From assembly GCA_017609795.1 (NCBI GenBank), contig JAFCDH010000010.1:1-32481 (forward strand): DNA of 32,481 nucleotides, in the 5' to 3' direction. Positions 271-28,458 of this stretch are shown here, piece by piece. The stretch's first letter is position 1. Every line of letters begins with the position of its first letter. A model generated the notes under the pieces. The model was not told the origin of the DNA, searched no databases, and saw only the letters and a list, made by a program, of their open reading frames with translations. Source of the stretch: Candidatus Pacearchaeota archaeon. Lineage in GTDB: Archaea > Nanobdellota > Nanobdellia > Pacearchaeales > GW2011-AR1. A program made the translations under genes and the position numbers.

Positions 271-385
271 TTATCAAGCTCAATTAATAAATCATCTGAG
301 TTTTCTTTAAATCTATTTTTTCATCTTCAAGGCTTAATCTTCTCATCTCCATCTTATTATATTTTATAAGATATTGATATTTTTT
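271..385 (-). repeat. Intergenic repeat copy E1 (sense on minus strand)
   Basis: Plus strand reads catcttcaaggcttaatcttctcatctccatcttattatattttataagatattgatatttt and abuts the stop codon of ORF 386..2143. Shares taatcttctcatctccat with copy 26441..26540 and ttataagatattgatatt with copies at 8139 and 19164. Confidence 0.7.
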
Positions 386-2143
386 TTAAACCCCTGCTTT
401 AGCTTTTATCTCACTCATAAAAGCATCTCCAATCTTTTGTTTATCACCATCAATTTTCCATTCAATTCCATCATCTGTATATTTTCCAGCAATATTAACA
501 TAAGCACCACAATCTCCAAGAGAATAGCAAATCTCATTCATTTTTTTAGCATAACTTTGTTCTAAACATTCGCAATTATCTTTACATTTTCTTTTTTCTA
601 ATAATCCTTTTTCATAAGTTACAACACAGACTGAATTTCCTAAAGAACAGATACTTGAAGCATCTCCTTCATCCCAGAATTTTAATCCAGCAGGAACATT
701 TGGAACACAAGCTCCTCCGCCAACCTGCACCCCAGAGCCTTTTTCTTCATCTTTATCATCCCCTCCACCAAAAAGCCCGCCTATAAACTCTCCTGTAATT
801 GGAGCTACTGCTTGTCCTGTAATTCCTCCCTGAAACCCTCCTGTACTTCCTCCACTAAAAACAGGATTAGAACCAGCTCCTGCTTCAGCACTTTCAGTTG
901 TTAATCCAGTAAAATGAGCTCCTTCTAACCAATAACAATCTCTTTTATCAGTATTTAAACAATCATCTTCTTCATCTTGGTCAATACAATCAGTCCATCT
1001 ATTAATTCTGCAAGCAGCTTCTATAAATCCTTCTCCAGCACCAGACTCAATAACTCCTTCATAACAAACTTCGTTTCTAAAATCAGCACAAGGTTCAATT
1101 GTTTCTTCACCTGCAATACAAACATGTCTAAAATGTCTGCTTCCTACTGCATCTGCTCCTTCACCAACATTTCCATCATAAATACACCAGCTTTCTCCAT
1201 TTTTATAATCATTTCCATCTTCAGTATTATAACAATTTAAATCAGTACAATAATAATTACCATAACTTGCACTACCTTTTGAACAAATACTTCCTTTAAA
1301 ATAATCACAATTTCCACAAGTTCTTGAACCAGCGTTTGCATTTTCAACACCATAACCACAACTTTCAGATTTATCAATTACTTTCTTCCAATAAGATTTA
1401 TCATTTATTTTAGAACCATCATAAATGTTAGCTTGATTCCCACAAGTATCTAAAAAATAAACTTCATCTTTTCCTTTAATACAAGCAGTCTTAGTAGAAG
1501 GCCCACAATTAGTTGCTAATTCTTCTGCAGAACATAAATAATCTTTAAAAAATTCAGTATCAGAAGTTTGTCCTTCTACTGTTTGTGATTTTAAACATTC
1601 TCCACGAGTTGTAAATCTACAAGTTCTTTGATAATCAATTTCATAAACACAAGCACCTTCATCTTGTGCAGCAGCAAGTGCAATACATGTTGTTTCATCT
1701 CCAACATCATTTCTAAAATTAGTTTCTAATCCAAATAAGCCAGATAATCTTTTGCATCTAGTTAATGTTACAAAACTTGCTTGAGTTCCTAAAACACAAC
1801 AACCAAGATTACATTGAGGAATATTACATTCTGCATCATCAATCCAAGTCCCATTTCCATCATTACAAACTTTCTGAGGAGTATTTTCCATGCACAATCC
1901 TTCTTGAGAATCATAACAACAACCAGATTTACAAAAACTAGTTGCATCACAAGAAGTTGGAGTTTTTCTAAAACCAGTATTACAATTTTCTTCTAATGTA
2001 TTTTGACACCAAGCACCAGATTGAGTTTTTTCACAACATGCATTTGCTGCAGGCCATGTTTGCTCTTGAGCAAACATAAGAGGAACAATAAGCAAATTAA
2101 ATACAATTATTATTCCTAAATATATTTTTGTTTTATTGACCAT
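386..2143 (-). CDS. Secreted cysteine-rich protein P1, paralog of the N-terminal ~500 aa of ORF 3874..7362 (family not recognised)
   Basis: 585-aa ORF with a signal-like N-terminus (IYLGIIIVFNLLIVPLMFA then QEQ) and about 45 Cys. Collinear similarity to the 1162-aa ORF, e.g. NGESWCIYDGNVGEGADAVGSRHFRHVCIAGEETIEPCADFRNEVC vs NGESWCEYDGTIGDGRDVVGSRHVKHLCFMGEERIEPCQDYRNQIC, and SLGDCGAYVNIAGKYTDDG vs SLGDCGGYVNIAGEYTDDG. Confidence 0.8.
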   Translation of the reverse strand: MVNKTKIYLGIIIVFNLLIVPLMFAQEQTWPAANACCEKTQSGAWCQNTLEENCNTGFRKTPTSCDATSFCKSGCCYDSQEGLCMENTPQKVCNDGNGTWIDDAECNIPQCNLGCCVLGTQASFVTLTRCKRLSGLFGLETNFRNDVGDETTCIALAAAQDEGACVYEIDYQRTCRFTTRGECLKSQTVEGQTSDTEFFKDYLCSAEELATNCGPSTKTACIKGKDEVYFLDTCGNQANIYDGSKINDKSYWKKVIDKSESCGYGVENANAGSRTCGNCDYFKGSICSKGSASYGNYYCTDLNCYNTEDGNDYKNGESWCIYDGNVGEGADAVGSRHFRHVCIAGEETIEPCADFRNEVCYEGVIESGAGEGFIEAACRINRWTDCIDQDEEDDCLNTDKRDCYWLEGAHFTGLTTESAEAGAGSNPVFSGGSTGGFQGGITGQAVAPITGEFIGGLFGGGDDKDEEKGSGVQVGGGACVPNVPAGLKFWDEGDASSICSLGNSVCVVTYEKGLLEKRKCKDNCECLEQSYAKKMNEICYSLGDCGAYVNIAGKYTDDGIEWKIDGDKQKIGDAFMSEIKAKAGV

Positions 2144-2212
2144 TTTTTTATATTATAATTTATTTTTTTCTTTATTATATTATTCTTCGGTATTTTAATG
2201 GATGTTTATGTT

Positions 2213-2313
2213 TTATTATCTGAGTAGCTTAAGCTTAATCCCATTTTCTTTAAGTTTTGTTATGAATAGCTTAATCTTCTCAACATTCTCATCCTATGCT
2301 TATAAGATTCTAG
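2213..2313 (-). repeat. Intergenic repeat copy E2
   Basis: Plus strand reads ttattatctgagtagcttaagc...agcttaatcttctcaacattctcatcctatgcttataagattc. The distal 43 nt (2268-2310) match 3020-3062 with 3 mismatches. Confidence 0.75.
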
Positions 2314-2326
2314 TTTATATTTTATC

Positions 2327-2674
2327 TTATTTATTTTTTTCTTTATTTATTATTTCTTTTATTTGGATTTTTAGTTTAGGGATATCTTGTTTAATAACAT
2401 CCCAAACAGTTTTAAAATCAACACCAAAATAATAATGAATCATTTTGTCCCTAATTCCTGCAATCCCTTTCCATTCTACATTAGGATATTTTTTTCTAAA
2501 TTCAGAAGGTATATTTTTTATAGCTTCACCAATAATCTCAATTCTCCTTATTGTAGCATCTTTCAAAAGATTATCCTTTTTGAATTTATTTTTTGTTATA
2601 TTGTTCATACTTTTTATTATCTTATCTATTTCATCCCGGATATGGTTGATAAATACTAAAGAATCCCTTTTCAT
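2327..2674 (-). CDS. hepT: HEPN-domain (DUF86) toxin of an MNT-HEPN pair
   Basis: 115 aa with an RX4H-type motif in GIAGIRDKMIHYYFGVD. Overlaps the upstream nucleotidyltransferase gene by 4 nt (ATGA), the classic MNT-HEPN arrangement. Confidence 0.8.
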   Translation of the reverse strand: MKRDSLVFINHIRDEIDKIIKSMNNITKNKFKKDNLLKDATIRRIEIIGEAIKNIPSEFRKKYPNVEWKGIAGIRDKMIHYYFGVDFKTVWDVIKQDIPKLKIQIKEIINKEKNK

Positions 2675-2964
2675 ATTATTCTTACCTCCTCTGCCAAAAT
2701 TCTTTCTTTTAAATAAGGACTAATCCCATTATATGTTAATAAGTCAACTTTTTTTTGTAAAATCTTTTTAAGAAGCATTTCAAGTTTTACTAAATCAAGT
2801 AAACTAAATCTTTTCCCCTTAACATCAACTAAAATATCAACATCACTATTTTTCTTTTCCTCACCTCTTGCATAACTACCAAATATCCCTGCTTTCTTAA
2901 CTCCATGGTCTTTTAGAGTCTTTACAATTTGTTTTTTTATTTTATTTACATTATTTTTTACCAT
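2671..2964 (-). CDS. mntA: Minimal nucleotidyltransferase (MNT) antitoxin
   Basis: 97 aa with GIFGSYARGEEKKNSDVDILVD, the GS...DxD motif of the pol-beta superfamily. Paired with the HEPN gene. Confidence 0.8.
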   Translation of the reverse strand: MVKNNVNKIKKQIVKTLKDHGVKKAGIFGSYARGEEKKNSDVDILVDVKGKRFSLLDLVKLEMLLKKILQKKVDLLTYNGISPYLKERILAEEVRII

Positions 2965-2973
2965 TTTATATTA

Positions 2974-3063
2974 TTTTTCTATATCTCTATAATCTTAGAG
3001 CTTTGAAGATGACTTGTATAACTTAATCTTCTCAACATTCTCGTCCTATGCTTATCAGATTCC
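2974..3063 (-). repeat. Intergenic repeat copy E3 (mosaic)
   Basis: The proximal half tttttctatatctctataatcttagagctttgaagatgacttgtata equals the proximal half of copy 8139..8238 apart from a 1-nt indel. The distal half equals the distal half of copy 2213..2313. Confidence 0.8.
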
Positions 3064-3066
3064 AAA

Positions 3067-3834: not shown

Positions 3835-3873
3835 CTTTTTATATTTATTTAACTCATCCCTTGTTTATAAATT

Positions 3874-6800
3874 TTAACTAATCAACGAATAACCTTTAAC
3901 TTTTCTTTTACCTCCTTTTTTTCCATATTCATCTTTACATTGGATAATATAAGTTCTTAATTGCCAATTTCCAATATGTTCAATTCCATCTCCACTCATA
4001 ATCTCTGCTTCATCCCAATTAAATTCATCAAATGAATATCTACATTCAGCTTGCTCATCTGTAATAACTTTCATACCACTATCATAATACATTCTTATAA
4101 TTCTAGGTCCTGTACTATCAATCCTTACTCTAAATAAAGTTGAAGTTTCAGCAGTATTTCCAGCAACATCTTCACATCTAATATCAACCTCATATCTTCC
4201 CCTTGTCATTCTATTAAATACTTGATTATGATAATTAGAATCTGTTTCATAAAATCCAATTTCTCCAACTCCAAAGTCATAATAACATTTTGCTTTTCCT
4301 TGTTCAGCACCACCAGAAGTTTTAACTTGTAATTCAACTGTCATAGGTTCAACACCAGAAAAAATCTCAGCATTATTAATTGGTCTAACTTCATCAATCA
4401 TAAGCTCAGAAGCAGATTTTTGCAAAGAGTAAGCATAACTTTCTGTCATTGTATTTTTATTATCAGAAATATCTTGACATTTAATATAAATATCACTATT
4501 CTCATCTAAGTTAGTAAGATTAGTTTCACAAGCCCATCCATATAATCCATAATCTTCTAAATCAGTTTTACAACTCATTTGATTTTCCATTAAATCATAC
4601 CCTCTATCTTCATTACTATATTTACAATTTGAAGGTTCATTAATCCAAATATCTAATTCTTGTTTAGTTTGATTATAACCTATATAACCATTATTTTCAG
4701 GTTCTGTTCTTGCAATTCTTGGAGCAGTTAAATCAGGACCTGGTTCAACACAAGTTCTTATTGTATAACTTGCTGCATTAATAGCTCCATTAATGCTTTT
4801 ACATTTTACATAAAAGTTAATTTCACCTAAAGCTTTTATTTGTTCATCAGTTAAATTATATTGATTTCTAAATGCTTCAGGACTTGGCATAAACATTAGG
4901 TTTGTATGATTTGCTAAATATAAATTACTTCCACCAAAATAATCTGTCATTTGATCATAAGTATGCAAAGGATCTTCACTTATTTTACATTGAGCAGGTT
5001 TATCTGTTTCAATTCCAAATTCAATAGGAGTAAATTCAGGAATACACCCAAGATTATCACTTTCAACTAATCTAAATCCATTTGCACTAATATCATAATA
5101 TTCATAACCTTTTGTCATTGTTCCAAACAAAGGACTTATCCTAGGACTGCTAACATCAGTAGGAGAATTATCAATACATAATTCTTGATCTGTTCCTTTA
5201 TTAATAAACTCACATGTTTGCCCTAAACTTTGACATCTATATTCTGTACATGGAGTTTCAAAAGGATCATTTGCATTACATTTATAACAATTATCCCCAC
5301 CTGTTGGAGCCTGCCATGGCATACATTTAAAATTTACAATTACTTTTTTTGATTTTCCTATTCCTAGGGCGAGCATTGTTATTGCTATTATGATTCCGAT
5401 TATACCTAGAGGTTTTAAAGCAGGAGTTCCCCAAATAGCTAGAGCAGCAACAACTACTCCTCCAGAAACAATCCATGCAGTTGAAGATTTTACTCCAAAC
5501 CCTGTACTTAAAAAATTTTGAACAGACCATATTGCGGCAGCAGTAGCTACTGCATTTCCAAATGCTGTTGTCGCTGTTTTAGTTCCTGTAGCCGCACCAG
5601 CCCCATGAGGTGCACCTGCAGCTGTGATTGCAGAAGAAGCACTTGTGCTAGTCCCAATACTAGGTCCAAGATTACCAATAATTTCTCCAACACCAGTACC
5701 TATATCACCAATAACAGGTAATCCTGCAAGAGTTTTATAAACACCAGACATTAAATCAATTCCTAAAGCTCCTAATCCTGCAACAGCCATTCCAGCAATT
5801 TTTAATTTACTTATTCCTCCACCCTCATATTCAGGATTTTCAGGACTTAACCAAGCTCCTCCACCTAAAAAACTAAGATTCCCAGGCTCAGCAGGGTCTT
5901 GTCCAGGATTATTACGAGCATATTTTCTATATTGTTCACCCCCTATTTTTCCAGCATCAGAACTATATCCATCATCAGTATATTCTCCTGCAATATTTAC
6001 ATAACCCCCACAATCTCCTAAAGAAGTACATAGCTCATTCATTTGTTGTGTAAATATAGATTTTTCACAATCACAATTAGCTACACAGTCCCATCCAACA
6101 AATTTTCTATGTGAAAATCTTTTAACATAAATCACAGTGCATGTTTGGCTTGCCATAGAACATGCCATTTCAGCATTTTTTCCACTTTCTTCACTAGACA
6201 GGTCAAATCCTGCAGGATATTTAGGAACACACATATCAAAATTAAATTTATCAATATTAACTCCTTTAATAATACAATCAGGATTTTCATCACACTCTTC
6301 TCTCATCTTTTCAGTGTTTTCTCTGGTATTATAATCTAAACAACTTCTCCAATTATTAACTCTGCAAGCAGCCTCTGAAAAACTTCCACCCTCATTTAAA
6401 TCAGTTTTAGATTCAACACAAATTTGATTTCTATAATCTTGGCAAGGTTCTATTCTTTCTTCACCCATAAAACAAAGATGTTTTACATGTCTGCTTCCAA
6501 CAACATCTCTTCCATCACCTATTGTTCCATCATATTCACACCAACTCTCTCCATTTCTTTTTCCAATGTCTTCACAATTCACACTTTTACAAGCAGGTTC
6601 TCCTGCAACTAAACCACAATAATTACCAATAAATAAACTACATTCTTCAGCAATATCTTCTTTATTTCCACAAGAATCAAACCAATAAACACTATCTTTT
6701 CCTTCAACACATTCTTTATGGTCTTTAGCAACACAATTAGTTTCTAAACTTTCATCAGAACAAAAAACATCTTTATAAAAATTCCCACCTCTGCCTCTGC

Positions 6801-7362
6801 ATTCTTCACTAGTTATAAACCTACATTCATCATCTAAAATACAAGCACCTTCATCATCTCTTTCAGCTAAAAATATACATTCTATCTCAGTATTAATTTC
6901 AGGCCTAAAATCAGTTTCCAAACCTAAAAATCCTGATTCAACTTCACAATTTCTTTCAGATGTAAAAAAAGCATCATTTCCTAAAACACAACAACCTCTT
7001 GAACATTGGGCAATATTACAAACCTCATTATCAAACCATTGTCCATTACAACTTCTTTTAGGAGTTTTTTCATCACATAATCCTGTTCCTGAACTATAAC
7101 AACAACCTAATTTGCAAAAACTTGTTTCTTCACACATAGTAGGAGCAGATTGAGCTTCTTGTTTACATTCTTCATCTGCAACAAACTGACAAGAACTTCC
7201 ATCATTTGTTTCTTCACAACAAGAATATCCTGGAAGTGTTTGCGCACTAACACTTCCTGTTGCAGAATATACTAAATAACAAAATGCAAAAGTAGATATT
7301 ATTAATATTAAAATCTGAAAATAACTCATCTGCGCTTTTTTACTAAAATATTTTTTTATCAT
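3874..7362 (-). CDS. Giant cysteine-rich surface protein P2 (N-terminal P1-like domain, Gly/Ala-rich hydrophobic segment, C-terminal beta-rich repeats)
   Basis: 1162-aa ORF with a signal-like N-terminus. Residues ~45-500 are paralogous to P1. Residues ~505-680 are Gly/Ala-rich with several hydrophobic helices (e.g. WIVSGGVVVAALAIWGTPALKPLGIIGIIIAITMLALGIG). The C-terminal ~480 aa carry 3-4 repeats of an Ig-like-looking unit, each with a conserved Cys (AQCKIS, SNCKYS, AKCYYD, AECRYS). Confidence 0.85.
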   Translation of the reverse strand: MIKKYFSKKAQMSYFQILILIISTFAFCYLVYSATGSVSAQTLPGYSCCEETNDGSSCQFVADEECKQEAQSAPTMCEETSFCKLGCCYSSGTGLCDEKTPKRSCNGQWFDNEVCNIAQCSRGCCVLGNDAFFTSERNCEVESGFLGLETDFRPEINTEIECIFLAERDDEGACILDDECRFITSEECRGRGGNFYKDVFCSDESLETNCVAKDHKECVEGKDSVYWFDSCGNKEDIAEECSLFIGNYCGLVAGEPACKSVNCEDIGKRNGESWCEYDGTIGDGRDVVGSRHVKHLCFMGEERIEPCQDYRNQICVESKTDLNEGGSFSEAACRVNNWRSCLDYNTRENTEKMREECDENPDCIIKGVNIDKFNFDMCVPKYPAGFDLSSEESGKNAEMACSMASQTCTVIYVKRFSHRKFVGWDCVANCDCEKSIFTQQMNELCTSLGDCGGYVNIAGEYTDDGYSSDAGKIGGEQYRKYARNNPGQDPAEPGNLSFLGGGAWLSPENPEYEGGGISKLKIAGMAVAGLGALGIDLMSGVYKTLAGLPVIGDIGTGVGEIIGNLGPSIGTSTSASSAITAAGAPHGAGAATGTKTATTAFGNAVATAAAIWSVQNFLSTGFGVKSSTAWIVSGGVVVAALAIWGTPALKPLGIIGIIIAITMLALGIGKSKKVIVNFKCMPWQAPTGGDNCYKCNANDPFETPCTEYRCQSLGQTCEFINKGTDQELCIDNSPTDVSSPRISPLFGTMTKGYEYYDISANGFRLVESDNLGCIPEFTPIEFGIETDKPAQCKISEDPLHTYDQMTDYFGGSNLYLANHTNLMFMPSPEAFRNQYNLTDEQIKALGEINFYVKCKSINGAINAASYTIRTCVEPGPDLTAPRIARTEPENNGYIGYNQTKQELDIWINEPSNCKYSNEDRGYDLMENQMSCKTDLEDYGLYGWACETNLTNLDENSDIYIKCQDISDNKNTMTESYAYSLQKSASELMIDEVRPINNAEIFSGVEPMTVELQVKTSGGAEQGKAKCYYDFGVGEIGFYETDSNYHNQVFNRMTRGRYEVDIRCEDVAGNTAETSTLFRVRIDSTGPRIIRMYYDSGMKVITDEQAECRYSFDEFNWDEAEIMSGDGIEHIGNWQLRTYIIQCKDEYGKKGGKRKVKGYSLIS

Positions 7363-7370
7363 TTTTTGTT

Positions 7371-7464
7371 TTTTCTAAAATCTTATAAGCACAATCAAGC
7401 TTTATTATCTGAATAGCTTAATCTCAGTAGGGCATCTCGTCCCACGCTTATAAGATTCTAATAT
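7371..7464 (-). repeat. Intergenic repeat copy E4 with perfect 12-nt terminal inverted repeat
   Basis: aatcttataagc at 7379-7390 and gcttataagatt at 7446-7457. The distal part agcttaatctcagtagggcatctcgtcccacgcttataagatt belongs to the same subfamily as the copies at 8139 and 19164. Confidence 0.8.
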
Positions 7465-8130
7465 TTATTTATTCTCTTCAGCCTCCTTAAAATCTTCTTT
7501 AGTCAATTTAATACAAACATTTACTAATCTAATTAATTCATTACATCTTGAAAAAGGGCTATCTCTTTTTCTTTCAAAATAAGTCCATAGAATTGTTTTA
7601 ATCCCTTTTTTCTTTAATTTTTCAATAACCGGAACAAAATCAGAATCTCCAGAAACTAGTGCAATCCCTTTAACATTATCAGATTCTAAAGGAACACTTG
7701 CCAAATCCATTCCTAAATACATATCAACCCCTTTTTGTTTATAAACAAAAATATTATTAATTTTTAATCTCTGAGTTCTTCCTTCTCTAACAATAATATT
7801 ATCTTTTTTAAATCTAGAAATAAATTTATCATATAATTTCTTTTTTTCATTTTCTTTAATACTAGATTTTTTGCTTTGAAATGGGGGGGCATCATAAAGA
7901 TAAATCTTTTTAACAATACATTTGGTTTTTTTTGCAAGTGTTTCAACAAAATTTCTTACATTATATCTTAAACCTTCATTAAAGAAATGTTTTTTAACCC
8001 TCATTAAATAAGCATTATCAATAAAAACAATAATTTTTAAAAAATCGTCCGGCAACCTCGAAAGATCACCGGGGAGTATCATATTATTATTATCTTTTCC
8101 TTCTTTATAAACTTTTTCATTATATTTCAT
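7465..8130 (-). CDS. NYN-domain (LabA/DUF88-like) predicted ribonuclease
   Basis: 221 aa. IVFIDNAYLM, GVDMYLGMDLA and ALVSGDSDFVPVIEKLKKKGIKT match the acidic-residue pattern of NYN/LabA proteins. Confidence 0.7.
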   Translation of the reverse strand: MKYNEKVYKEGKDNNNMILPGDLSRLPDDFLKIIVFIDNAYLMRVKKHFFNEGLRYNVRNFVETLAKKTKCIVKKIYLYDAPPFQSKKSSIKENEKKKLYDKFISRFKKDNIIVREGRTQRLKINNIFVYKQKGVDMYLGMDLASVPLESDNVKGIALVSGDSDFVPVIEKLKKKGIKTILWTYFERKRDSPFSRCNELIRLVNVCIKLTKEDFKEAEENK

Positions 8131-8138
8131 TTTTTGTT

Positions 8139-8238
8139 TTTTTCTATATCTCTATGAATCTTAGAGCTTTGAAGATGACTTGTATAGCTTAAACTCAGTA
8201 GAACATCTCGTCCTACGCTTATAAGATATTGATATTAT
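8139..8238 (-). repeat. Intergenic repeat copy E5
   Basis: tttttctatatctctatgaatcttagagctttgaagatgacttgtatagcttaaactcagtagaacatctcgtcctacgcttataagatattgatatt. Positions 8186-8236 match 19205-19255 at 49 of 51 positions. Confidence 0.8.
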
Positions 8239-9315: not shown

Positions 9316-9354
9316 TAAATATTTAAAGATTGGTTCCTTTTATTATTTAATAAA

Positions 9355-9450
9355 ATGGTAGAAAAAACCATAATTAAACTAGAGAAGTTTGGAGTATTAT
9401 TAGGAATAATAGCAATAATTATATTTGGATATTTAATAATCTTTGGTTAA
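9355..9450 (+). CDS. Possible 31-aa membrane peptide
   Basis: Own translation MVEKTIIKLEKFGVLLGIIAIIIFGYLIIFG with a single hydrophobic helix. Too short for the ORF track and no homology recognised. Confidence 0.2.
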   Translation: MVEKTIIKLEKFGVLLGIIAIIIFGYLIIFG

Positions 9451-9649
9451 AATGAATTGGGAAGATAGGTTAAACATTGTTTCACATACTGTCAATTTTT
9501 CTATAGTTCTTTATATTCTGAAGTCAGCACTTCAACCAAAGACCTTTGAACTTAGTAATCCTCTTCTTGCAATTTTTGGATTAATAATAGCAATTCTTCT
9601 AAATATAATTGGAACCATTGTAGTTTTAAAAAGAAGCAAAAAACTCTAA
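9443..9649 (+). CDS. Small two-helix membrane protein (hypothetical)
   Basis: 68-aa ORF from a TTG. An in-frame ATG at 9452 gives MNWEDRLNIV.... Two hydrophobic stretches. Confidence 0.35.
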   Translation: MVKMNWEDRLNIVSHTVNFSIVLYILKSALQPKTFELSNPLLAIFGLIIAILLNIIGTIVVLKRSKKL

Positions 9650-10897: not shown

Positions 10898-11127
10898 ATA
10901 AGGAGTAGCTTGATTTAACTTTTAAAGATTATTATACTTTAATATAATTTATTATATAAATCAAAAATCAAACTAATACTATGAATTAATACTAGTATTT
11001 TAAGGAATCTAAAGAGACACTTTACTAAGCTTAAGCTAAACAAAACTCTTAAAATTTAGATTCAAAAAGGGCATCACCATACATTAAGATTTTAGATAAT
11101 TAGATTATAAAATAACAAGACCTAAAA

Positions 11128-13599
11128 ATGGAATTTAAAGAAAAAAGAATTAGAGAAATAACTTTTATTTATTATTCTAGGATAGATGTCAGAAAAGCAA
11201 TTTTCAAGTTTTCAAAAAATAGAGAATGTATCCCAAGATATTATGAGGATTTTGGCAAGCGCCCAGATAATTTTCAATATCCTACAGATATTTTAGAGCA
11301 AGTTAAAAAAGGAGCAACATCTTTTCATTGTTCAGAAGAATTATGGAAAGATTCATTAGAAATTTCAAATGAATTATCAGAGCAAGAATTTAATGAACTA
11401 AGAGCAGGTTGGGATTTGCTTTTAGATGTAGATTCCCCTTATTTAGAATATAGCAAAATATACACTCAACTTTTAATAGATATTTTAAAGTTTCATGGAA
11501 TTGAAAATGTAGGAGTAAAATTCAGTGTATCCGGAGATACAGATATTTTAGTTAAACTAGGAAATCAAATAAAACTTGTTAGGATTAATCAAGTGGTAGA
11601 ATTACTAAAAAAAGAGATTAAATTAGAGGTTTTATCTTTAAATAAAAATCAAAAACTTCAATTCTCAAAAATTTATAATTATTTAGAACATGAAGATATA
11701 ATCTATGATATCTTTCATTCTCAAAGTAAAATTCCATTAAAAGTAACAGGTTATCATTCAGTTTTTGTTTGGAAAAATGGAGAAATTATTCAAAAAAAAG
11801 TTTCTGAGATAAATAAAGGAGATTTTCTTATTTCATTCAATACACAAAAAAATCCAATAAGAAAGGACATTAAAGAGATAACAAATAAATTCGAATTTTC
11901 AAAAAATCAGTTTTCTAAAAAAATAGTAGAAAATAAAATACAAGTAACATTAGATTTAATGAGATTAATAGGTTATTTTTTAGCAGAAGGACATACCACA
12001 AAAATAATAAACCAAACAGGATTTACATTTCATAAAAATGAAAGAGAATATATTGATGATGTGGTAAATTTATTAAAAACTATAACTAAAAGAAAAATTT
12101 CAATAAGACACCCAAATCCAAATTCCACACAAATATTAATCCATTCAAAAGAATGGTATAATTTTTTCAAAAATAATTGTGGAGAAAAAAAGAATAAACA
12201 TGTACCTCAATTTGCATGGACTTCCTCTAGAGAATTATTTTTAGAGATGTTAAAAGGATACATAAGAGGAGATGGATACAAAGTAGGAGAATATAGCATT
12301 ATTGTTAAATCTGTTTCAAAGAGATTAATAAAAGAATTCGTTTGGTTATGCAAATTAAATAATATTTCTTGTTCCTTGTCTTCAGAAAAAAATAAACCAC
12401 ATATAATGCCTCAAGGGAATATCTTTCCAGGAAGTTTTGTTTATATTTTAAAAATCCCAAAATCTGAATTATCTTCTTTGGAATTTAATAGAGATAGAAA
12501 TAAATTCTCACCTTGTCCTGGGGATAAAATTTTTCCAATAGACGGGCTTAAAGTAGTTTATAAAAACATAAAACCAAAGATGTTTAATTATCATAGACCT
12601 GAGCAAATGACCTTGAATAAAAAAAGAGCAAATTTAAAAAGAATAAGAAAAGTTTTAGAATGGTTTGAAAAATTTAAATCAGTGGATTATGATGAGGAAT
12701 CTAAAAAAATCATTTCCAATTACTGGAAATTATTTAATTCTGATATAAATGTTGTAGAAATAAATAATATAATAAAAAAAGACAAACAAAAAGTTTATGA
12801 TATTTCTGTTGAAGAAACAGAATCTTTTTTTGGAAATGATTATCCTATATTGTTACATAATTCAGGCTCAAAAGGTTTTCATGTCATCATCCCTTGGACA
12901 GCATTTCCAAAAGAAATTTATGGACAAAAAACAAAAGATATGTTTCCAAAATGGCCAAGAGCAATTTGTGAATATCTTTCTGAAACAATAAGACCTAAAT
13001 TATCTGAAAAAATTTTTGAACAAGAAAGTTTAAAAGAAGTAGCAAAAAAAACAGGAAAAAAACAAGAAGAATTACTAATAACTGAATGTTTAATATGTAA
13101 TAGACCTGCTGTAAAAAAAGAACTTGTAACTTGGTTATGCCCTTCTTGTAAAAATCAACTAATAATGATAAAAAAAAATAAAAAAATACCCAAGTGTCCA
13201 AATGATAATTGCAGAAAAGAGATGATTTCAACTTTTTCTAAAGAAATCTTTTTTTGTGATTATTGTAATATTAGTTCTGATAAAAATCCTGAGAAGTTTG
13301 AAAAAACAAGAGAAAAAACAGAGGTTTTAATAGAAGCAGATTTAATTTTAGTTGCTCCAAGACATTTATTTAGAATGCCTTATAGTCTTCATGAAAAAAC
13401 AGCTTTGTCCTCAATAGTTATAGATAAAAATAAAATTAAGGATTTTCAAATAACAGATGCTAAACCATTTAAAATAGATATAAAAGAGTTTTACCCTAAT
13501 GCAAAGCCAGAAGAAGCAAGAGAACTTTTATTGCAAGCCTTAGATTGGAAAGAGCAAAAACAAAGACAAGAACAGAAGAAATTTTTCCTCCATGTGTAA
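11128..13599 (+). CDS. priS: DNA primase catalytic subunit PriS, interrupted by an intein
   Basis: N-extein carries WDLLLDVDS (DxD). After removal of residues 133-578 the junction reads GVKF-SGSKGFHVIIP, the conserved FSGxxGFH primase motif. Zn-ribbon-like CLICN...CPSC and CPNDNC...CDYC follow in the C-extein. Confidence 0.85.
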   Translation: MEFKEKRIREITFIYYSRIDVRKAIFKFSKNRECIPRYYEDFGKRPDNFQYPTDILEQVKKGATSFHCSEELWKDSLEISNELSEQEFNELRAGWDLLLDVDSPYLEYSKIYTQLLIDILKFHGIENVGVKFSVSGDTDILVKLGNQIKLVRINQVVELLKKEIKLEVLSLNKNQKLQFSKIYNYLEHEDIIYDIFHSQSKIPLKVTGYHSVFVWKNGEIIQKKVSEINKGDFLISFNTQKNPIRKDIKEITNKFEFSKNQFSKKIVENKIQVTLDLMRLIGYFLAEGHTTKIINQTGFTFHKNEREYIDDVVNLLKTITKRKISIRHPNPNSTQILIHSKEWYNFFKNNCGEKKNKHVPQFAWTSSRELFLEMLKGYIRGDGYKVGEYSIIVKSVSKRLIKEFVWLCKLNNISCSLSSEKNKPHIMPQGNIFPGSFVYILKIPKSELSSLEFNRDRNKFSPCPGDKIFPIDGLKVVYKNIKPKMFNYHRPEQMTLNKKRANLKRIRKVLEWFEKFKSVDYDEESKKIISNYWKLFNSDINVVEINNIIKKDKQKVYDISVEETESFFGNDYPILLHNSGSKGFHVIIPWTAFPKEIYGQKTKDMFPKWPRAICEYLSETIRPKLSEKIFEQESLKEVAKKTGKKQEELLITECLICNRPAVKKELVTWLCPSCKNQLIMIKKNKKIPKCPNDNCRKEMISTFSKEIFFCDYCNISSDKNPEKFEKTREKTEVLIEADLILVAPRHLFRMPYSLHEKTALSSIVIDKNKIKDFQITDAKPFKIDIKEFYPNAKPEEARELLLQALDWKEQKQRQEQKKFFLHV
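11524..12861 (+). mobile_element. Intein with LAGLIDADG homing-endonuclease domain inside priS
   Basis: 446 aa. Starts SVSGDTDILV (block A, Ser1), has VTGYHSVFV (TxxH block B) and two LAGLIDADG motifs (LIGYFLAEGHT, LKGYIRGDGY). Ends VYDISVEETESFFGNDYPILLHN followed by +1 Ser. Confidence 0.8.
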
Positions 13600-14881: not shown

Positions 14882-16765
14882 ATGAAAAGAGAGATGCTTG
14901 AAGGAGGGTTACGGAAGGGAAACTTGGTTCCCTTGCTATCACTTATATTAGTATTTAGTTTATTAATCATTCCTGTATTTGCACAAGATGGAGAAAATGG
15001 GGATGAAGATATAGGTAAAGGAGTTTCTGAAGATGAAATTGATAAAGCATATTCTTGTTTAAAATCTCAATTAAGTGAAAATTGTGGAGATACAAAATCA
15101 ACAGAACAAACAGCTTTAAGTTTGCTTGCAATAGCTTATGATTCTGGAAAACAATCTGATTGTAAAACTTCTCTTAATAGTAAAAAATCAGGAAGTTGTT
15201 GGGGAACAACTTCTTCAGCAAACTGTGATTTAAAATCAACTTCTTTAGCAGTTCTTGCCCTAGATAATATTAATTCAGCTCCTAATGATGCTATTGAATG
15301 GATATTAAGCAAAGAAAAACTATCTCCAGATTTAGATTGGTTTTTAGAAATTGATGCAGATGAAGCAACTTCTTGTGATATACAAGTTAATGAAGGAAGT
15401 GCAAAAACATTCCAAATGAATGAAGATAAAAAAATGTCTGGAAGCACTACTTGTTTATCTCCTGCAGAATCAAATTATTATTTAAAAATATCTGATTCTT
15501 GTCTTGATGATGAGTTTAAAATAAGCTGTGATAAAGATTTTAAAACAACTTTAATTTATAAAAAATCAGGAAGTAGTGTTTATTATATTTCAAGTCAGAC
15601 TCATTCTTCTTCTTCAGGCGGAACCACTAATGAACAAGTAAATGCATATTGTTTTGCAAAATCAAGTAGTTGTGATTATGAAGGAAGTTTATGGGCTTCT
15701 TTAGCTTTAGCAAGAACAGGAGAAGAAATCTCTCCTTATATTCCATATCTTACTTCAATGTCTGATGAAAACAAAGAATATCTTCCATCAGCTTTCTTAT
15801 ATATGTTAACTAATGAAGATGATTATTATTCTGATTTAACTAATCAGCAAAAACAAGGAAAATATTGGGAAGAAACAGGTAAAAAATTCTATGACACATC
15901 AATAGCACTTTTAGCATTACAAAATGTAAATATTGAAGAAGTAACAAATACTAAAGATTATTTATTAGAAATTCAAGATAATTCTGGATGTTGGAATTCA
16001 AATAATATAAGAGATACAGCATTTGTTTTATATTCTGCATGGCCTAAATCTCCTGTAATATCTGGAGATGGAAGATCAGATTGTGAAAGCTTTAATCATT
16101 ATTGTGTTTCATCAGGAGAATGTTTAACAGAAGACACTTTAGATGATTTTTATTGTTTACATTTAAGCGATGTTTGTTGTAAAACAAGACCTGCAGAACA
16201 AACATGTGCTGAAAAACAAGGAATTATTTGTTCTTCAACTCAAGAGTGTAGTGGAGCAGATTCTATAGCTTCAGATACTAATTATTGTTGTCTTGCTTCT
16301 TGTATTGAAATTAAAAAAAACGAATGTGAAAACCAAGGATATTCTTGTAAAACCTCTTGTTCATCTGATGAAGTAGAAAAAACAGGGTATAACTGTGATT
16401 ATGTTGGAGATGTTTGTTGTGATAAAGAAGAAGGAGGTTGGGGAATAATTATCCTTCTTATAATTTTAATAATTCTTGTAATTTTAGCAATTATATTTAG
16501 AAATCAATTAAAAATCTGGTGGTTTAGAATCAAAAGCAAATTAAGATTTGGAAAAGGGCCTTCAGAATCTTTACAACCACCTATGCCTCCAATGGGAGGA
16601 GTTCCTCAATTACAAAGACCAATGCCAAGACATATTATACCAAGAAGACCTACTCATCGCCCTAGAAGAGCTTTATCAAGAAGACCTCTTAAAACTCCAA
16701 AAACTCCAAAAGCTCCAGATGCTTTTGAAGATACAATGGATAAGTTAAGGAAGATGAGTAAGTGA
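14882..16765 (+). CDS. Membrane-anchored surface protein: alpha/alpha-toroid (prenyltransferase/terpene-cyclase-like) repeats, three Cys-rich modules, TM helix, Pro/Arg-rich tail
   Basis: Signal peptide (LLSLILVFSLLIIPVFAQD). Repeats TEQTALSLLAIAY, LKSTSLAVLAL, YEGSLWASLALA, YDTSIALLALQ and EIQDNSGCWNSNNIRDTAFVLYSAW. Three C-x6-7-C-x3-5-C-x11-18-CC modules. TM helix WGIIILLIILIILVILAIIF. Only 45 nt after the sigma-like gene. Confidence 0.8.
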   Translation: MKREMLEGGLRKGNLVPLLSLILVFSLLIIPVFAQDGENGDEDIGKGVSEDEIDKAYSCLKSQLSENCGDTKSTEQTALSLLAIAYDSGKQSDCKTSLNSKKSGSCWGTTSSANCDLKSTSLAVLALDNINSAPNDAIEWILSKEKLSPDLDWFLEIDADEATSCDIQVNEGSAKTFQMNEDKKMSGSTTCLSPAESNYYLKISDSCLDDEFKISCDKDFKTTLIYKKSGSSVYYISSQTHSSSSGGTTNEQVNAYCFAKSSSCDYEGSLWASLALARTGEEISPYIPYLTSMSDENKEYLPSAFLYMLTNEDDYYSDLTNQQKQGKYWEETGKKFYDTSIALLALQNVNIEEVTNTKDYLLEIQDNSGCWNSNNIRDTAFVLYSAWPKSPVISGDGRSDCESFNHYCVSSGECLTEDTLDDFYCLHLSDVCCKTRPAEQTCAEKQGIICSSTQECSGADSIASDTNYCCLASCIEIKKNECENQGYSCKTSCSSDEVEKTGYNCDYVGDVCCDKEEGGWGIIILLIILIILVILAIIFRNQLKIWWFRIKSKLRFGKGPSESLQPPMPPMGGVPQLQRPMPRHIIPRRPTHRPRRALSRRPLKTPKTPKAPDAFEDTMDKLRKMSK

Positions 16766-16817
16766 ATTTAGATTTTTTAATTCAAAAAGGCAAGCCTAAC
16801 TTGAATTTATTTACTTT

Positions 16818-16902
16818 CTAATATCTGATAATTATAAAAAGAAATGAAGATGACGATCTTAATCTATTCATAATAAAGCTTAAAGATTTATAGAGATTCC
16901 AG
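16818..16902 (+). repeat. Intergenic repeat copy (sense on plus strand)
   Basis: ctaatatctgataattataaaaagaaatgaagatgacgatcttaatctattcataataaagcttaaagatttatagagattccag. Aligns with the reverse complement of copy 27159..27282 (ttaatctattcataacacaacttaaagatataataagattccag). Confidence 0.7.
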
Positions 16903-16961
16903 TTAATAACACAAAAACTAAATTTAGTTAAATTTAAAATCTATTTATTCTTATCCTAATC

Positions 16962-19139: not shown

Positions 19140-19163
19140 TTTAAATTTTGGTTTTTTATATTA

Positions 19164-19256
19164 TTTATCTATATCTTTATGAACTTTTAAGCTATTATTT
19201 GAACAGCTTAATCTCTGTAGAACATCTCGTCCTACGCTTATAAGATATTGATATTT
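19164..19256 (-). repeat. Intergenic repeat copy E6
   Basis: tttatctatatctttatgaacttttaagctattatttgaacagcttaatctctgtagaacatctcgtcctacgcttataagatattgatattt. Confidence 0.8.
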
Positions 19257-19263
19257 ATTAGTC

Positions 19264-21022: not shown

Positions 21023-21023
21023 T

Positions 21024-21308
21024 TTAGTTTAATCCATATCTTTTAGAGAAATCTTTTACTTTAATACTCTTTTGTTTTTCAATAACCCTAATTTTTTCAA
21101 TAAATTCAGGTTTTAATTCAGGCTCTTCTTCTGTTTCAATATATCTTTCAACAACAAATTCAATAGCTTCACCTTTATCATTAAACCCATATTTAGCTTT
21201 TACAATATTTAATACCCTATTAGTATTTTCATCTAGTTTTATTAATGCATTTACCCTTTTATCTAAACTTAGTTTAAATAAGCTTAACTTATTTATAAAC
21301 TTTTCTAT
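21024..21308 (-). pseudogene. Antitoxin-like ORF without a canonical start codon
   Basis: Open frame ...LSLDKRVNALIKLDENTNRVLNIVKAKYGFNDKGEAIEFVVERYIETEEEPELKPEFIEKIRVIEKQKSIKVKDFSKRYGLN ends 1 nt before the toxin ATG. The LDENTNRVLNIVKAKYG pattern resembles small archaeal antitoxins. No ATG, GTG or TTG in frame back to the upstream stop. Confidence 0.3.
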
Positions 21309-21437
21309 GATAAATAATTTAAATAATATAAAAAAGAAATAAAAAATTTACTTTTTACTATAGCTTTAGATCTATTAATTAATTTTTTCAGAACAAAACA
21401 AAACATTTATAAATGTTATTACATATGTAATAACATA

Positions 21438-22929: not shown

Positions 22930-22947
22930 TTTTGATTTATTCTGAAA

Positions 22948-23032
22948 TTCTACAAGCTCAATCAAGAGACTATCTAAATAACTTAATCTCCTCCTCTTTA
23001 TTTCATAATATTTTATAAGATATAGATATTTT
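22948..23032 (-). repeat. Orphan intergenic repeat copy K (no downstream gene)
   Basis: ttctacaagctcaatcaagagactatctaaataacttaatctcctcctctttatttcataatattttataagatatagatatttt. Lies between the convergent 3' ends of 22630..22929(+) and lysS(-). Confidence 0.7.
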
Positions 23033-24415: not shown

Positions 24416-24475
24416 ATCTTTATTCTCATTAAGATTCCAATATTTTTAATTTTTATAAGTTATTAATTAATCCTT

Positions 24476-24709
24476 TCAAAACCCCTTTAAAACTTTAAAC
24501 CCACTTAATCCTTGATGTTTAATCTCTTGTGTTTCTACATTTTTAACATCAGAATGTGCAGGCCCTTTTCTACATATTTTAACCATTTCTAAATTTCTTG
24601 CAAATCCTTTTAATCCAAGCTCATTTGCTTTATCTTTAATAAAATTTCTAAAAAATACCCCTTGTACTGTTCCAGATATAAATATTTTAGTAGATTTCAT
24701 TTTTAACAA
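24476..24709 (-). CDS. acyP: Acylphosphatase-like protein with an apparent internal deletion
   Basis: ISGTVQGVFFRNFIKDKANELGLKGFARNL matches V.G.VQGVgFR...A..lgl.GwvrN. The usual DG.VE....G segment after RN is missing (77 aa total). Confidence 0.6.
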   Translation of the reverse strand: MLKMKSTKIFISGTVQGVFFRNFIKDKANELGLKGFARNLEMVKICRKGPAHSDVKNVETQEIKHQGLSGFKVLKGF

Positions 24710-24750: not shown

Positions 24751-24854
24751 AAATATTAATATCTTAATGAAATATTATGAGATACATAACAAAAGCTTAA
24801 TTTACTCATAACATAACTTAAAATTCCAACAAAATTCTAGAAATAATATAAACC
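24751..24854 (+). repeat. Intergenic repeat copy L, inverted relative to flanking genes
   Basis: aaatattaatatcttaatgaaatattatgagatacataacaaaagcttaatttactcataacataacttaaaattccaacaaaattctagaaataatataaacc reads in the sense orientation on the plus strand, although both neighbours are minus-strand genes. Confidence 0.7.
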
Positions 24855-25427: not shown

Positions 25428-25457
25428 TTATCTAAAAGAATTTATTGGTTTAAAGAA

Positions 25458-25664: not shown

Positions 25665-25710
25665 AATAAAGAATTATAATATCCCTACTTTAAAAACTTT
25701 ATCATATTTT

Positions 25711-26412: not shown

Positions 26413-26440
26413 TTTCTGTTTTTACTTTTTTTATTTTTGG

Positions 26441-26540
26441 ATTTATATTATTATTTTATCTGGAATTTTAAGCTTTATTATCTGAGTATCCTAATCTTCT
26501 CATCTCCATATCACCTTACGCTTATAAGATATTAGCATTT
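26441..26540 (-). repeat. Intergenic repeat copy E7
   Basis: ctggaattttaagctttattatctgagtatcctaatcttctcatctccatatcaccttacgcttataagatattagcattt. Confidence 0.75.
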
Positions 26541-26581
26541 TTTTATCACCCATTAAGATTAGTTTTAAATAAAATACAAAA

Positions 26582-27148: not shown

Positions 27149-27158
27149 TTTATTATTT

Positions 27159-27282
27159 TATATTATTTTTATTCTGGAATCTTATTATATCTTTAAGTTG
27201 TGTTATGAATAGATTAACCTTTTTCCATTATCTTAATCTTATCATCTTTATATCATTATATACATTAAGATATTGATAATTT
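27159..27282 (-). repeat. Intergenic repeat copy E8
   Basis: tatattatttttattctggaatcttattatatctttaagttgtgttatgaatagattaacc...atcatctttatatcattatatacattaagatattgataattt. Confidence 0.75.
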
Positions 27283-27289
27283 ATTTCCC

Positions 27290-27490: not shown

Positions 27491-27544
27491 TTTGTTTTTT
27501 TAAAAATGAAATGCTTGAAAATTTTTAATTTTCATTGTGCCATT

Positions 27545-27631
27545 TTTATATTATTTTTTGGAATCTAATAAGCTCATATAAGCTTCACATATCATCTTTA
27601 TCTCATTATATTTCATAAGATATTAGTATTT
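27545..27631 (-). repeat. Intergenic repeat copy E9
   Basis: tttatattattttttggaatctaataagctcatataagcttcacatatcatctttatctcattatatttcataagatattagtattt. Confidence 0.7.
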
Positions 27632-27636
27632 CTATT

Positions 27637-28299
27637 TTATTTCACTCCCTCAACATCTTCTTTTACATCTTCTTTAATCTCTTTATCAGCTTGTTTTTGA
27701 GTAATCTCCTTTTCTTCAACTTTATCTTCTATTTTAGTTATATCTTTAGCTAAATCTTTTTCAGTTTTTTCAATTTTCTCTTCAATTTTATTATCTTTAA
27801 TACTATCCAAAGCCTCTTTATTTTCAGTAGTATGTAGCTGTTTGTCTTTAGACATATCAGTTAATTTTCCTTTATCTTCTATTTCAATACTTTCTAAAAA
27901 CTCTCTCCCTTTTTTAGTTAATCTTCTTCCAGCTTTTTCCCCAAGTTCACTATATTTTTCTAAAAATTCAGCAGATTCAGCTTGTTGTAAGATTACACGA
28001 ATAATTTTTCCACTTGCTTTCTTAAATCTCTCAGGTTTCATTCCTCTATTTTTTTTACTCCCATATCTTGTTCTTAGTTTATTAACTCCGACTAATTTAT
28101 GAATATAAATCTGTCTTAAAATACTTGCAGCTCTTTTATACCAGAAATCCTTTTCTTGAGAAGGTCTTTTTTTTGCAACTCCTGATTTAACAAATGCAAC
28201 CCATTCAGGCTGTTTAAACTCAGGAATTTCTTTTAAAGCAAAAGCTAATTGCTTATTATATTCATTTGAAGGCATTTCATATACTGGATTTGATTTCAT
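27637..28299 (-). CDS. rps19e: Ribosomal protein eS19 with Lys/Glu/Asp-rich C-terminal extension
   Basis: PEWVAFVKSGVAKKRPSQEKDFWYKRAASILRQIYIHKLVGVNKLRTRYGSKKNRGMKPERFKKASGKIIRVILQQAE is the eS19 core, and the last ~70 aa are charged low complexity. Confidence 0.9.
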   Translation of the reverse strand: MKSNPVYEMPSNEYNKQLAFALKEIPEFKQPEWVAFVKSGVAKKRPSQEKDFWYKRAASILRQIYIHKLVGVNKLRTRYGSKKNRGMKPERFKKASGKIIRVILQQAESAEFLEKYSELGEKAGRRLTKKGREFLESIEIEDKGKLTDMSKDKQLHTTENKEALDSIKDNKIEEKIEKTEKDLAKDITKIEDKVEEKEITQKQADKEIKEDVKEDVEGVK

Positions 28300-28344
28300 T
28301 TTAAATCTTGGTTTGGATCATAACCTTTTCAAAAGGTTTGTTTT
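28300..28344 (-). promoter_or_regulatory. Conserved leader with palindrome, shared with the RuBisCO leader
   Basis: Sense strand aaaacaaaccttttgaaaaggttatgatccaaaccaagatttaaa runs directly into the eS19 ATG. Palindrome aaccttttcaaaaggtt at 28322-28338. Confidence 0.45.
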
Positions 28345-28362
28345 CATTTTTTTGATGTTATT

Positions 28363-28458
28363 TTTTATCTATATTTTTATAGGCTCAATCAAGCTTTGTT
28401 ATGTTTAGCTTAATCTTTTCCTCTACATATCATTATATCCATTAAGATATTAGTTTAT
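28363..28458 (-). repeat. Intergenic repeat copy E10
   Basis: ttttatctatatttttataggctcaatcaagctttgttatgtttagcttaatcttttcctctacatatcattatatccattaagatattagttt. Confidence 0.7.

Follow-up and report, generated by a model that had tools for sequence, protein, structure and literature searches.

Several lines of evidence suggest that a short intergenic element, found in many copies in the archaeal stretch analyzed here (contig JAFCDH010000010.1, 32,481 nucleotides, hereafter the window), is a lineage-specific, non-coding interspersed repeat. It resembles the Correia elements of Neisseria and, more broadly, transposable elements of the miniature inverted-repeat type (MITEs), and it would supply promoters to the genes that it precedes; this is the interpretation toward which we lean. 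The window holds 14–15 copies of 85–175 nt with no conserved open reading frame (ORF), and more than 25 further copies occur in unrelated contigs and in relatives. In its size, its non-coding character, its copy number and its dispersal through intergenic spacers, the element has the attributes of a MITE. It makes up about 4–5% of the 32-kb stretch and occupies about half of the gene spacers, including nearly every long spacer between co-directional genes, and its density of about 15 copies per 32.5 kb would amount to about 460 per Mb if the window is representative. DPANN archaea have small, dense genomes that are usually thought to be poor in repetitive and mobile DNA, and the window belongs to a Woesearchaeota-like DPANN archaeon. 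Pfam identifies the archaeal markers eS19, eL31, PCNA, an archaeal histone fold and a form-III-type RuBisCO, together with accessory NYN, MNT/HEPN and NUDIX genes and an intein-bearing gene; the GC content is 25–33%, mostly 25–30%, and the coding strands are purine-rich. Judged by lysyl-tRNA synthetase (LysRS), whose 457-aa ORF has its true start 5 codons downstream, the closest named genome is a Candidatus Woesearchaeota metagenome-assembled genome (L005, 73% identical). Contigs of relatives or metagenomes that were compared with the window, about 200 kb of partial genomes in all, carry L-numbers; syntenic relatives were fetched through LysRS and NYN homologs, and L014 and L035 are contigs from another sample that are 99.8% identical to the window.

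A reading of the window from its letters alone (the sequence-only reading) had described an oriented, modular and recombinant intergenic family in 14 spacers, and this family is genuine. A repeat search of the window recovers it (as repeats D1–D4, D7, D14 and D18), MAFFT aligns all 14 copies, and an nhmmer profile built from them scores every one at E-values from 6e-6 to 9e-21. To avoid circularity, a second profile was made from copies in other contigs only, and it finds 12 of the 14 at E<1e-3 (1e-4 to 4e-14). Copy c13931, the weakest that we accept, is marginal in this search (E=0.06), and w27545, which has the distal and proximal blocks of the family by eye and in the MAFFT alignment, is missed (the copies are listed in Table 1). 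When 20 locally dinucleotide-shuffled windows were searched, the first profile gave nothing below E=2 and the independent profile gave no match, which refutes the notion that the similarity is no better than that of shuffled AT-rich spacers. A degenerate fragment proposed at 11026–11070 is significant in no profile.

The mosaic structure attributed to the copies is likewise exact in its details. Positions 8186–8236 match 19205–19255 at 49/51 and 3020–3062 match 2268–2310 at 40/43, the only difference between 2974–3019 and 8139–8186 is a 1-nt indel, and the shared 18-mer taatcttctcatctccat is found at 335 and at 26492. Copy w8139 is 97% identical to w19164 in its distal half and 96% identical to w2974 in its proximal half, and w2974 is itself chimeric, its distal half being 91% identical to w2213 and its proximal half 96% identical to w8139. 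The element precedes core and accessory genes alike, with Pfam confirming eS19, eL31, NYN and MNT/HEPN. Copies are 60–97% identical, lie 0.3–11 kb apart and are separated by genes, an arrangement that is not that of a CRISPR array; no CRISPR, tRNA or Rfam identity was found for the element, as ARAGORN detects no tRNA in the window and the Rfam search gave no match at the gathering threshold or at E<=1. Several features had escaped the sequence-only reading, namely terminal inverted repeats, antisense copies, truncated copies and the fact that syntenic relatives lack the family.

The short form of the element is about 95 nt long, and long variants measure 140–175 nt. The consensus of a 27-copy alignment reads AAATATTAATATCTTATAAGCATAGGAnGAGATnnAGATGAnnAGATTAAGnTAnTCAnnAnCAAAnCTTAAAAATTTATAAAAAT, followed by an A-rich tail, and its near-invariant blocks are TATCTTA at the distal end, TTAAG, CTT-AAAG and TTTATA. 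An intact copy consists of a left terminal repeat (AAATATCAATATCTTATAAGC), two internal palindromes (CRTAG..CTAYG and TTAAGCT-N10-13-AGCTTAA), a right terminal repeat on the gene side (CTTAAAG-ATTTATAGAGATAT) and an A-rich tail that leads to the ATG. Intact copies have terminal inverted repeats (TIRs) of about 15 nt around CTTATAAG. These are 15 nt long in w7371 and in L004c (TTATCATTATCTTAT / TTATCAATATCTTAT; both p<=0.004), and w7371 combines its pair (TAGAATCTTATAAGC / TAAAATCTTATAAGC) with two internal hairpins. Tested against shuffles, the TIRs reach p<0.05 in 6 of 27 copies and 0.06 in two more, and in the remaining copies they are no better than in shuffles. The consensus is palindromic (slid registers give only 32–53% pairing), but the pairing is not kept in individual copies, which is the pattern expected of decaying inverted repeats.

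Orthologous sites differ in whether they contain the element. The spacer between the acylphosphatase gene (AcyP) and LysRS is filled in L008 and L014 and empty in L015 (3 nt) and L010 (15 nt), and the AlkD–TrmY spacer is filled in L008 and empty in L010. The AcyP–LysRS element of L008, a long variant of about 135 nt, has an exact 18-nt flanking duplication (TGTGAAAAAGAGAATTAA, p<0.003) that covers the AcyP stop codon and the old spacer, and it closely resembles an L010 copy at another site (eL31–AlkD); it is a de novo insertion. Deletion is seen at the level of strains, as the window has lost 71 nt, comprising the central and proximal modules, relative to the complete AcyP–LysRS element of L014 (9886–9973, E 1.5e-7), and the loss joins LysRS in frame to an upstream ATG (window 24416–24709 versus L014 9579–10000). 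The TrmY–AcyP spacer holds, beside a conserved AcyP promoter, one idiosyncratic variant (ATACATAACA) that the window and L015 share but carry in opposite orientations. Aligned sense to sense, the two copies score 38; the corresponding values are 16.5 +/- 2.8 with shuffles and 23 with the reverse complement. Similarly, the spacer between the genes for a 627-aa and a 331-aa protein holds a sense copy in the window (w16818) and an antisense copy of another subtype in L036. The nearest neighbors of copies are mostly found within the same genome and not at the orthologous site, which suggests that copying or gene conversion continued after the lineages split. We also observed two head-to-tail copies in a convergent spacer after an HAD hydrolase gene (L036 2456–2627), and thus the family can form tandem arrays.

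The family is confined to a narrow clade, in which LysRS is about 80% identical or more. It is present in L008 (LysRS identity 88%), L015 (87%), L010 and L011 (85%), L033 (80%) and also L036 (NYN identity 78%), it is reduced to a central-plus-proximal relic in L012 (LysRS 80%), and it is absent from L034 (LysRS 79%) and from L005. An exact scan of one genome per GTDB species with a 22-nt pattern of the distal block (A-type) gave no match. The same pattern matched four metagenome contigs that share only the element with the window, and in these contigs copies precede FttA/aCPSF1, a proteasome subunit, Rad50, a ThrRS editing domain (ThrRS-ED), HerA, Trm5 and an RPA-like gene. Two patterns compared with viral contigs gave chance 18-mers only, none of them with the element, and BLAST searches of plasmids and phages gave no match for it.

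Comparison with the two outgroups suggests what the element has done to a ribosomal protein cluster. In both L005 and L034, the genes from eS19 to eL31 lie 0–4 nt apart, with one or two small ORFs between eL39 and eL31 that are missing in the window. In the window and in L010, the spacers from eS19 to eL31 are about 110–200 nt long and each contains a copy. Parsimony indicates that these spacers are insertions into an ancestral operon. The 220-aa eS19 was considered as a fusion with the next outgroup ORF, which it is not, as that ORF is eL39.

We infer that the proximal end of the element acts as the promoter of the adjacent gene. Element-free promoters in the window have AAACATTTATAAATG-like boxes, and also AACATTTATATAC and AAACATTTAAATAT, at 24–37 nt from the ATG, a distance that points to leaderless or very short-leader mRNAs. 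The proximal module of the element, CTTAAAG-ATTTATAGAGAT (also given as CTTAAAG-ATTTATAGAG), has the same form as these ordinary promoters. Among the 23 copies with a defined downstream gene, 13 have a proximal box resembling the B recognition element and TATA box (BRE/TATA) at 21–35 nt from the ATG; in the remaining copies extra sequence follows the element, with its own TATA or a long leader. Furthermore, about 140 kb of sequence contains 9 gene starts with the tail A3-7CA3-6-ATG, 8 of them directly behind an element. The description of the proximal end as running into the next start codon does not hold for the copies at 271–385 and 2213–2313, which are about 100 nt or more from the next ATG; the gene after w271 starts about 95–130 nt further on and has its own TATA.

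Orientation, which was scored only in tandem spacers, is strongly biased, with about 20 sense copies versus 3 antisense copies (hand tally; binomial p ~2e-4), and every antisense copy is followed by another canonical TATA, one that lies outside the element. Copies in divergent spacers (L002c, L003a, L004b, L004c and L010a) have the start codon 5–20 nt away and no upstream co-oriented gene. These copies still point at the start codon, and therefore the element is associated with the 5' end downstream of it and not with an upstream 3' end.

If the element is indeed a promoter-supplying repeat of the Correia type, its right end would be a BRE/TATA-type archaeal promoter at leaderless or short-leader distance from the ATG, and each sense insertion would give the downstream gene its own promoter. 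Ancestral operons would in this way have been broken into separately transcribed genes. The repeat may have spread by transposition via an unseen enzyme or, alternatively, by copy-and-paste through recombination; older copies would decay, and gene conversion between copies would make chimeras. The distal box could be the recognition end for mobilization, a regulator site, or a second promoter that may fire outward.

A number of observations weigh against this interpretation. A flanking duplication is found in 1 of 29 copies, the other 28 having no repeat beyond chance, and 18 nt is long for a classical target site duplication (TSD). The TIRs are significant in only about a quarter of the copies, and their core, CTTATAAG, is a palindromic TATA-like word, so that part of the symmetry could simply reflect two TATA boxes. 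No new insertion separates the two 99.8%-identical strains over 32 kb, and no transposase, recombinase or reverse transcriptase is seen among the flanking genes by Pfam and gene tables of these partial genomes. Conservation peaks in the distal box, which is remote from the gene, and a simple promoter does not explain this. Finally, unrelated genes often have the repeated unit extending exactly up to their start codon, a precision that recombinational copying of whole upstream regions, or strong selection, would produce more easily than random transposition. Exact abutment to the ATG and the chimeric copies fit recombinational copying at least as well as transposition. The suggestion of a MITE-like role gains support from TIRs in some copies, by presence and absence between relatives and by the one 18-nt duplication, with the reservation that the TIRs and the duplication are found in only part of the copies.

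An alternative is a non-mobile cis-regulatory cassette, composed of a distal operator box, palindromic operators and a BRE/TATA promoter, that would serve a lineage-specific regulator as a single regulon and would have spread by recombination or gene conversion. We regard this as a serious but unlikely candidate. Conservation is blocky, with four near-invariant blocks (TATCTTA, TTAAG, CTTAAAG and TTTATA) set in more variable sequence; there are three or four instances of CTTAA/TTAAG, some direct and some inverted, and the unit reaches the ATG exactly in at least 8 genes. The copies are chimeric and cluster by genome and not by orthologous site, as gene conversion predicts, no transposase was found among the neighboring genes, and these encode helix-turn-helix (HTH) proteins such as a Sigma70_r4-like gene. 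However, the associated genes have no common function (ribosomal proteins, LysRS, a toxin-antitoxin pair, secreted Cys-rich proteins, Rad50 and the proteasome), and the same essential gene differs between close relatives, the region upstream of LysRS being filled in L008 and L014 and empty in L010 and L015. Antisense, convergent-spacer and tandem copies also exist, and the 18-nt flanking duplication marks an insertion event. A related and decidedly unlikely possibility is an archaeal "mobile promoter" whose terminal repeats are themselves BRE/TATA boxes and whose spread made the operons of a reduced DPANN genome monocistronic and leaderless; the distal box and the CTTAA/TTAAG palindromes would then be regulator sites, and dozens of core genes would fall into one regulon. 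Ribosomal proteins, aminoacyl-tRNA synthetases, FttA, the proteasome and Rad50 would in that case have been wired together by a repeat.

An action at the RNA level appears very improbable. It would involve a small structured RNA made from the distal TATA-like box, or a structured 5'-untranslated region (UTR) or processing site, in which a three-way junction is functional. In copies with good TIRs the fold is indeed a three-way junction that the TIR stem closes. The folds of w7371, w19164 and w28363 are far better than those of shuffles (z -5.4, -4.8 and -3.1, respectively), and the distal CTTATAAG box, some 25 nt upstream of a purine-rich block, could serve as a promoter. Nevertheless, for many copies, degenerate ones among them, the fold does not improve on that of shuffles (z from -1 to +0.75), RNAalifold on 27 copies yields 0 consensus pairs, and Rfam gives no match. 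An explicit three-helix model pairs 63.7% of cells compared with 63.0% in column shuffles, a level reached by 94 of 500 shuffles, and its covariation is 0.123 versus 0.125; this model, of a terminal stem, a distal hairpin and a central hairpin, was rejected for its lack of covariation, although the consensus is palindromic. The modules are moreover freely swapped, deleted and duplicated, and the element is missing from syntenic relatives. A conserved structured RNA is thus not supported, and the short structured RNA that had been among the candidate roles of the element is set aside. Two further candidates were rejected. Words such as GATGA and CTGA-like words of C/D-box sRNAs are present, but subtypes differ in where these words lie and how they are spaced, and the ATGs of the GAGATG block, which might have indicated coding mini-ORFs, open ORFs of 3–13 codons of unrelated sequence.

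We give hardly any credence to a 3'-end or terminator module of the upstream gene, possibly combined with a promoter. Its appeal lies in the placement of the distal end, which had been described as lying 3–20 nt after the preceding stop codon. This is true of 10/14 window copies, which begin 0–13 nt after the stop of a co-oriented gene, but three copies begin at 41–82 nt, and the copy at 24751–24854 does not follow a stop codon, being antisense between two minus-strand genes. In addition, w22948 and the tandem pair of L036 follow a gene and have no co-oriented gene downstream. Nearness to stop codons is, however, explained by insertion into spacers that were 0–15 nt long, and the five copies in divergent spacers have no upstream co-oriented gene. 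Archaeal termination uses an oligo-T tract, and the sense-strand consensus has none. The combined 3'-end/promoter module of the sequence-only reading is thus retained for its promoter part, through the BRE/TATA-like box 21–35 nt from the ATG, and abandoned for its 3'-end part. Retroposition in the manner of short interspersed nuclear elements, in which RNA copies are reverse-transcribed into A-rich targets, is equally hard to credit. The A-rich 3' tails, the single 18-nt duplication and copies without the distal part (the L012 relics, L014 1452–1518 and L015 3747–3814) would suit it. Yet the flanking genes show no reverse transcriptase, and a transcript from the element's own TATA would exclude it, so that new copies would lack the best-conserved block; 3'-truncated copies exist too, and in-place inversions fit recombination at inverted repeats better.

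To return to the reading toward which we lean, the closest functional analog of the element appears to be the Correia repeat enclosed element of Neisseria (CREE, or NEMIS), in which inverted repeats surround a core and promoters are formed at either or both ends (PMC2649163, PMC10969869). Correia elements map immediately upstream of genes and can invert (PMC10969869). The present element is similarly non-coding, about 100–150 bp long and present in many copies, some of them with TIRs around a conserved core, and it too lies mostly immediately upstream of genes, has ends that are predicted to form promoters and undergoes in-place inversion. Gains and losses of Correia elements between strains alter regulation (PMC2649163, PMC10969869), and here gains and losses are seen between relatives. 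The two differ in that they share no sequence similarity and that in a DPANN host the promoter would be of the BRE/TATA type and not of the sigma-70 type. There is also no detectable TA target duplication, and the integration host factor (IHF) and RNase III features of Correia elements are not applicable. Finally, the present element has a stronger orientation bias, and its unit often reaches the start codon exactly.

The MITEs of Sulfolobus and haloarchaea are tied to identifiable insertion sequence (IS) families and have clear TSDs. Like archaeal MITEs, the element is small, non-autonomous, intergenic and multicopy and has TIRs in some copies; unlike them, it has no partner IS that we could find, a duplication in 1/29 copies, and, if the window is representative, a density of about 460 versus 105 per Mb. 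The latter figure comes from a MITE census of 8,220 archaeal genomes, in which a Woesearchaeal genome is among the most MITE-dense (PMC11602168); other archaea known to have MITEs are Sulfolobus (SM elements), Halobacterium and Haloquadratum (PMC10969869). Given this census, a Woesearchaeon rich in MITEs is not in itself a novelty. We would place the element as a new, MITE-like member of the small interspersed promoter-bearing repeats; strict membership among MITEs is unproven because a TSD is seen in 1/29 copies and no partner IS was found.

Bacterial interspersed mosaic elements (BIMEs) and repetitive extragenic palindromic (REP) sequences of enterobacteria and the BOX elements of pneumococcus are modular, extragenic, co-transcribed and recombinogenic. 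REPs are palindromes of about 35 nt that go together with RAYT transposases; BOX elements consist of boxA-B-C arrays and have no promoter role. The present element resembles BIME and BOX in being modular, extragenic and recombinogenic, with units variously combined, and differs from REP and BOX in its fixed distance to the start codon and its TATA-type ends. No RAYT-like gene or Y1-transposase (TnpA_REP/RAYT) domain is seen in any annotated neighbor, and a unit of about 95 nt with three distinct modules is not that of REP or BIME. With ordinary leaderless BRE/TATA promoters of archaea, the element has in common a similar box and distance to the ATG (21–35 versus 24–37 nt). However, ordinary promoters share only about 12–15 nt, whereas the element is homologous over about 90–100 nt upstream of unrelated genes and is missing from orthologous spacers of relatives.

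Table 1. Copies of the repeat in the window (positions in the 32,481-nt stretch; "both profiles" refers to the window-copy and independent nhmmer profiles)
Copy	Position	Strand	Setting	Evidence
w271	271–385	-	Long variant with internal insertion	nhmmer E 1.8e-11; independent 2e-6
w2213	2167–2318	-	w2213 (2236–2318) plus tandem central module (2167–2237)	E 1e-13 and 6e-4; independent 4e-10
w2974	2965–3066	-	Fills whole spacer between 255-aa gene and MNT gene	Both profiles; proximal TATA 27 nt from ATG
w7371	7363–7466	-	Most intact copy	TIR p<0.002; fold z = -5.4; proximal TATA 26 nt from ATG
w8139	8131–8238	-	Upstream of NYN gene	Both profiles; TIR p=0.02; TATA 27 nt from ATG
c13931	13931–14105	+	Long degenerate variant upstream of HTH (Sigma70_r4-like) gene	E 6e-6; independent 0.06
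w16818	16814–16912	+		Both profiles; antisense other-subtype copy in orthologous L036 spacer
w19164	19159–19257	-	Upstream of MJ0538-like gene	E 9e-21; independent 4e-14; fold z = -4.8
w22948	22934–23032	-	After LysRS stop, between convergent ORFs	Both profiles
Truncated 15th copy	24416–24475	-	Distal module only	Pairwise alignment with strain L014
Antisense copy	24751–24849	+	Between two minus-strand genes	Inverted variant in L015; AcyP with own conserved TATA outside element
w26441	26439–26540	-	Between eL31 and AlkD	Both profiles; L010 and L008 copies in same spacer
w27159	27169–27282	-	Between eL39 and eL31	Both profiles
w27545	27541–27632	-	Between eS19 and eL39, central module shortened	E 8e-9 window profile; independent profile misses
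w28363	28364–28458	-	Upstream of eS19	Both profiles; then 83-nt leader with hairpin

Some of these copies have further features of their own. The tail of w8139 (AGAAAAAAACAAAAA) abuts the ATG, and copies are also found in the spacers of L008, L011 and L036 that are orthologous to that of w19164. In the window, w22948 is parted from the histone gene by a plus-strand ORF of 99 aa; the copy in L010 and L033 stands immediately before that gene.

A second, smaller repeated leader immediately precedes the ATG of several genes, eS19 and RuBisCO among them (28300–28345 and 32383–32440, both on the minus strand, and a partial one at 19140–19156 on the same strand); it is also found at L036 10745–10789 and at about L011 4860–4919. 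It consists of a hairpin (AAACCTTTTGAAAAGGTT or AACCCTTTTAAAAAGGCT) followed by (GA)CCCAAAYCAARATTTAAA and has no Rfam match. As it lies downstream of the TATA of the main element, it would be a shared 5'-UTR module. Upstream of eL39 (27491–27545, minus strand) there is an apparent ancestral start, ATGGCA, where the L010 gene begins; it is followed by an insertion of about 45 nt with a hairpin (TGAAAATT-AAAA-ATTTTCA) and then by the present eL39 ATG.

Other differences between the window and its relatives concern coding regions. The acylphosphatase of the window has a 51-nt in-frame deletion relative to L014 (77 aa versus 91 aa). The intein/LAGLIDADG gene at 11128–13922 is a single ORF of 960 aa in the sister strain (L035 4121–7003), and an 88-nt deletion in the window (junction 13572/13573) splits it into ORFs of 823 aa and 125 aa, so that the locus is a pseudogene or else differs through assembly. 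In the same comparison, the window gene for the 627-aa protein has 48 extra in-frame nt at 16652–16699. The "spacer" at 21023–21437 contains an uncalled antitoxin-like frame on the minus strand, where the sister strain has genes of 77 aa and 94 aa and about 92 extra nt, and it looks like a decaying toxin-antitoxin locus. Likewise, the 330-nt "spacer" at 9316–9645 (plus strand) is probably not truly intergenic, as it holds two short hydrophobic ORFs, MVEKTIIKLEKFGVLLGIIAIIIFGYLIIFG and a membrane-like ORF of about 65 aa that is called in L035. The Cys-rich secreted proteins encoded at 386–2143 and 3874–7362 on the minus strand are paralogs, with stretches of 49–145 nt at 71–80% nucleotide identity (repeats D5, D6, D8, D10, D15, D17 and D19). 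HTH proteins with bacterial Sigma70 region 4 are encoded in the window (14147–14836, plus strand), in L010 (4720–5382) and in L034 (19787–20611 and 20672–21349), and one of the L034 proteins matches both Sigma70 region 2 and region 4. Such Sigma70-domain proteins are unexpected beside an archaeal transcription apparatus.

For a reduced archaeal genome the repeat appears unusually dense and strongly oriented, with a visible effect on operon structure; it is probably of a known kind, and its function is a predicted one. Conserved ribosomal protein genes that once stood back to back in one operon are now parted where the repeat lies. In practical terms, the profile of the element can serve to locate gene starts and to tell strains apart in metagenomic data from this clade. 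If its proximal TATA is active, the element would be an archaeal counterpart of the Correia elements and a clear natural case of promoters distributed by a repeat, and it would bear on how leaderless, gene-by-gene transcription replaces operons.

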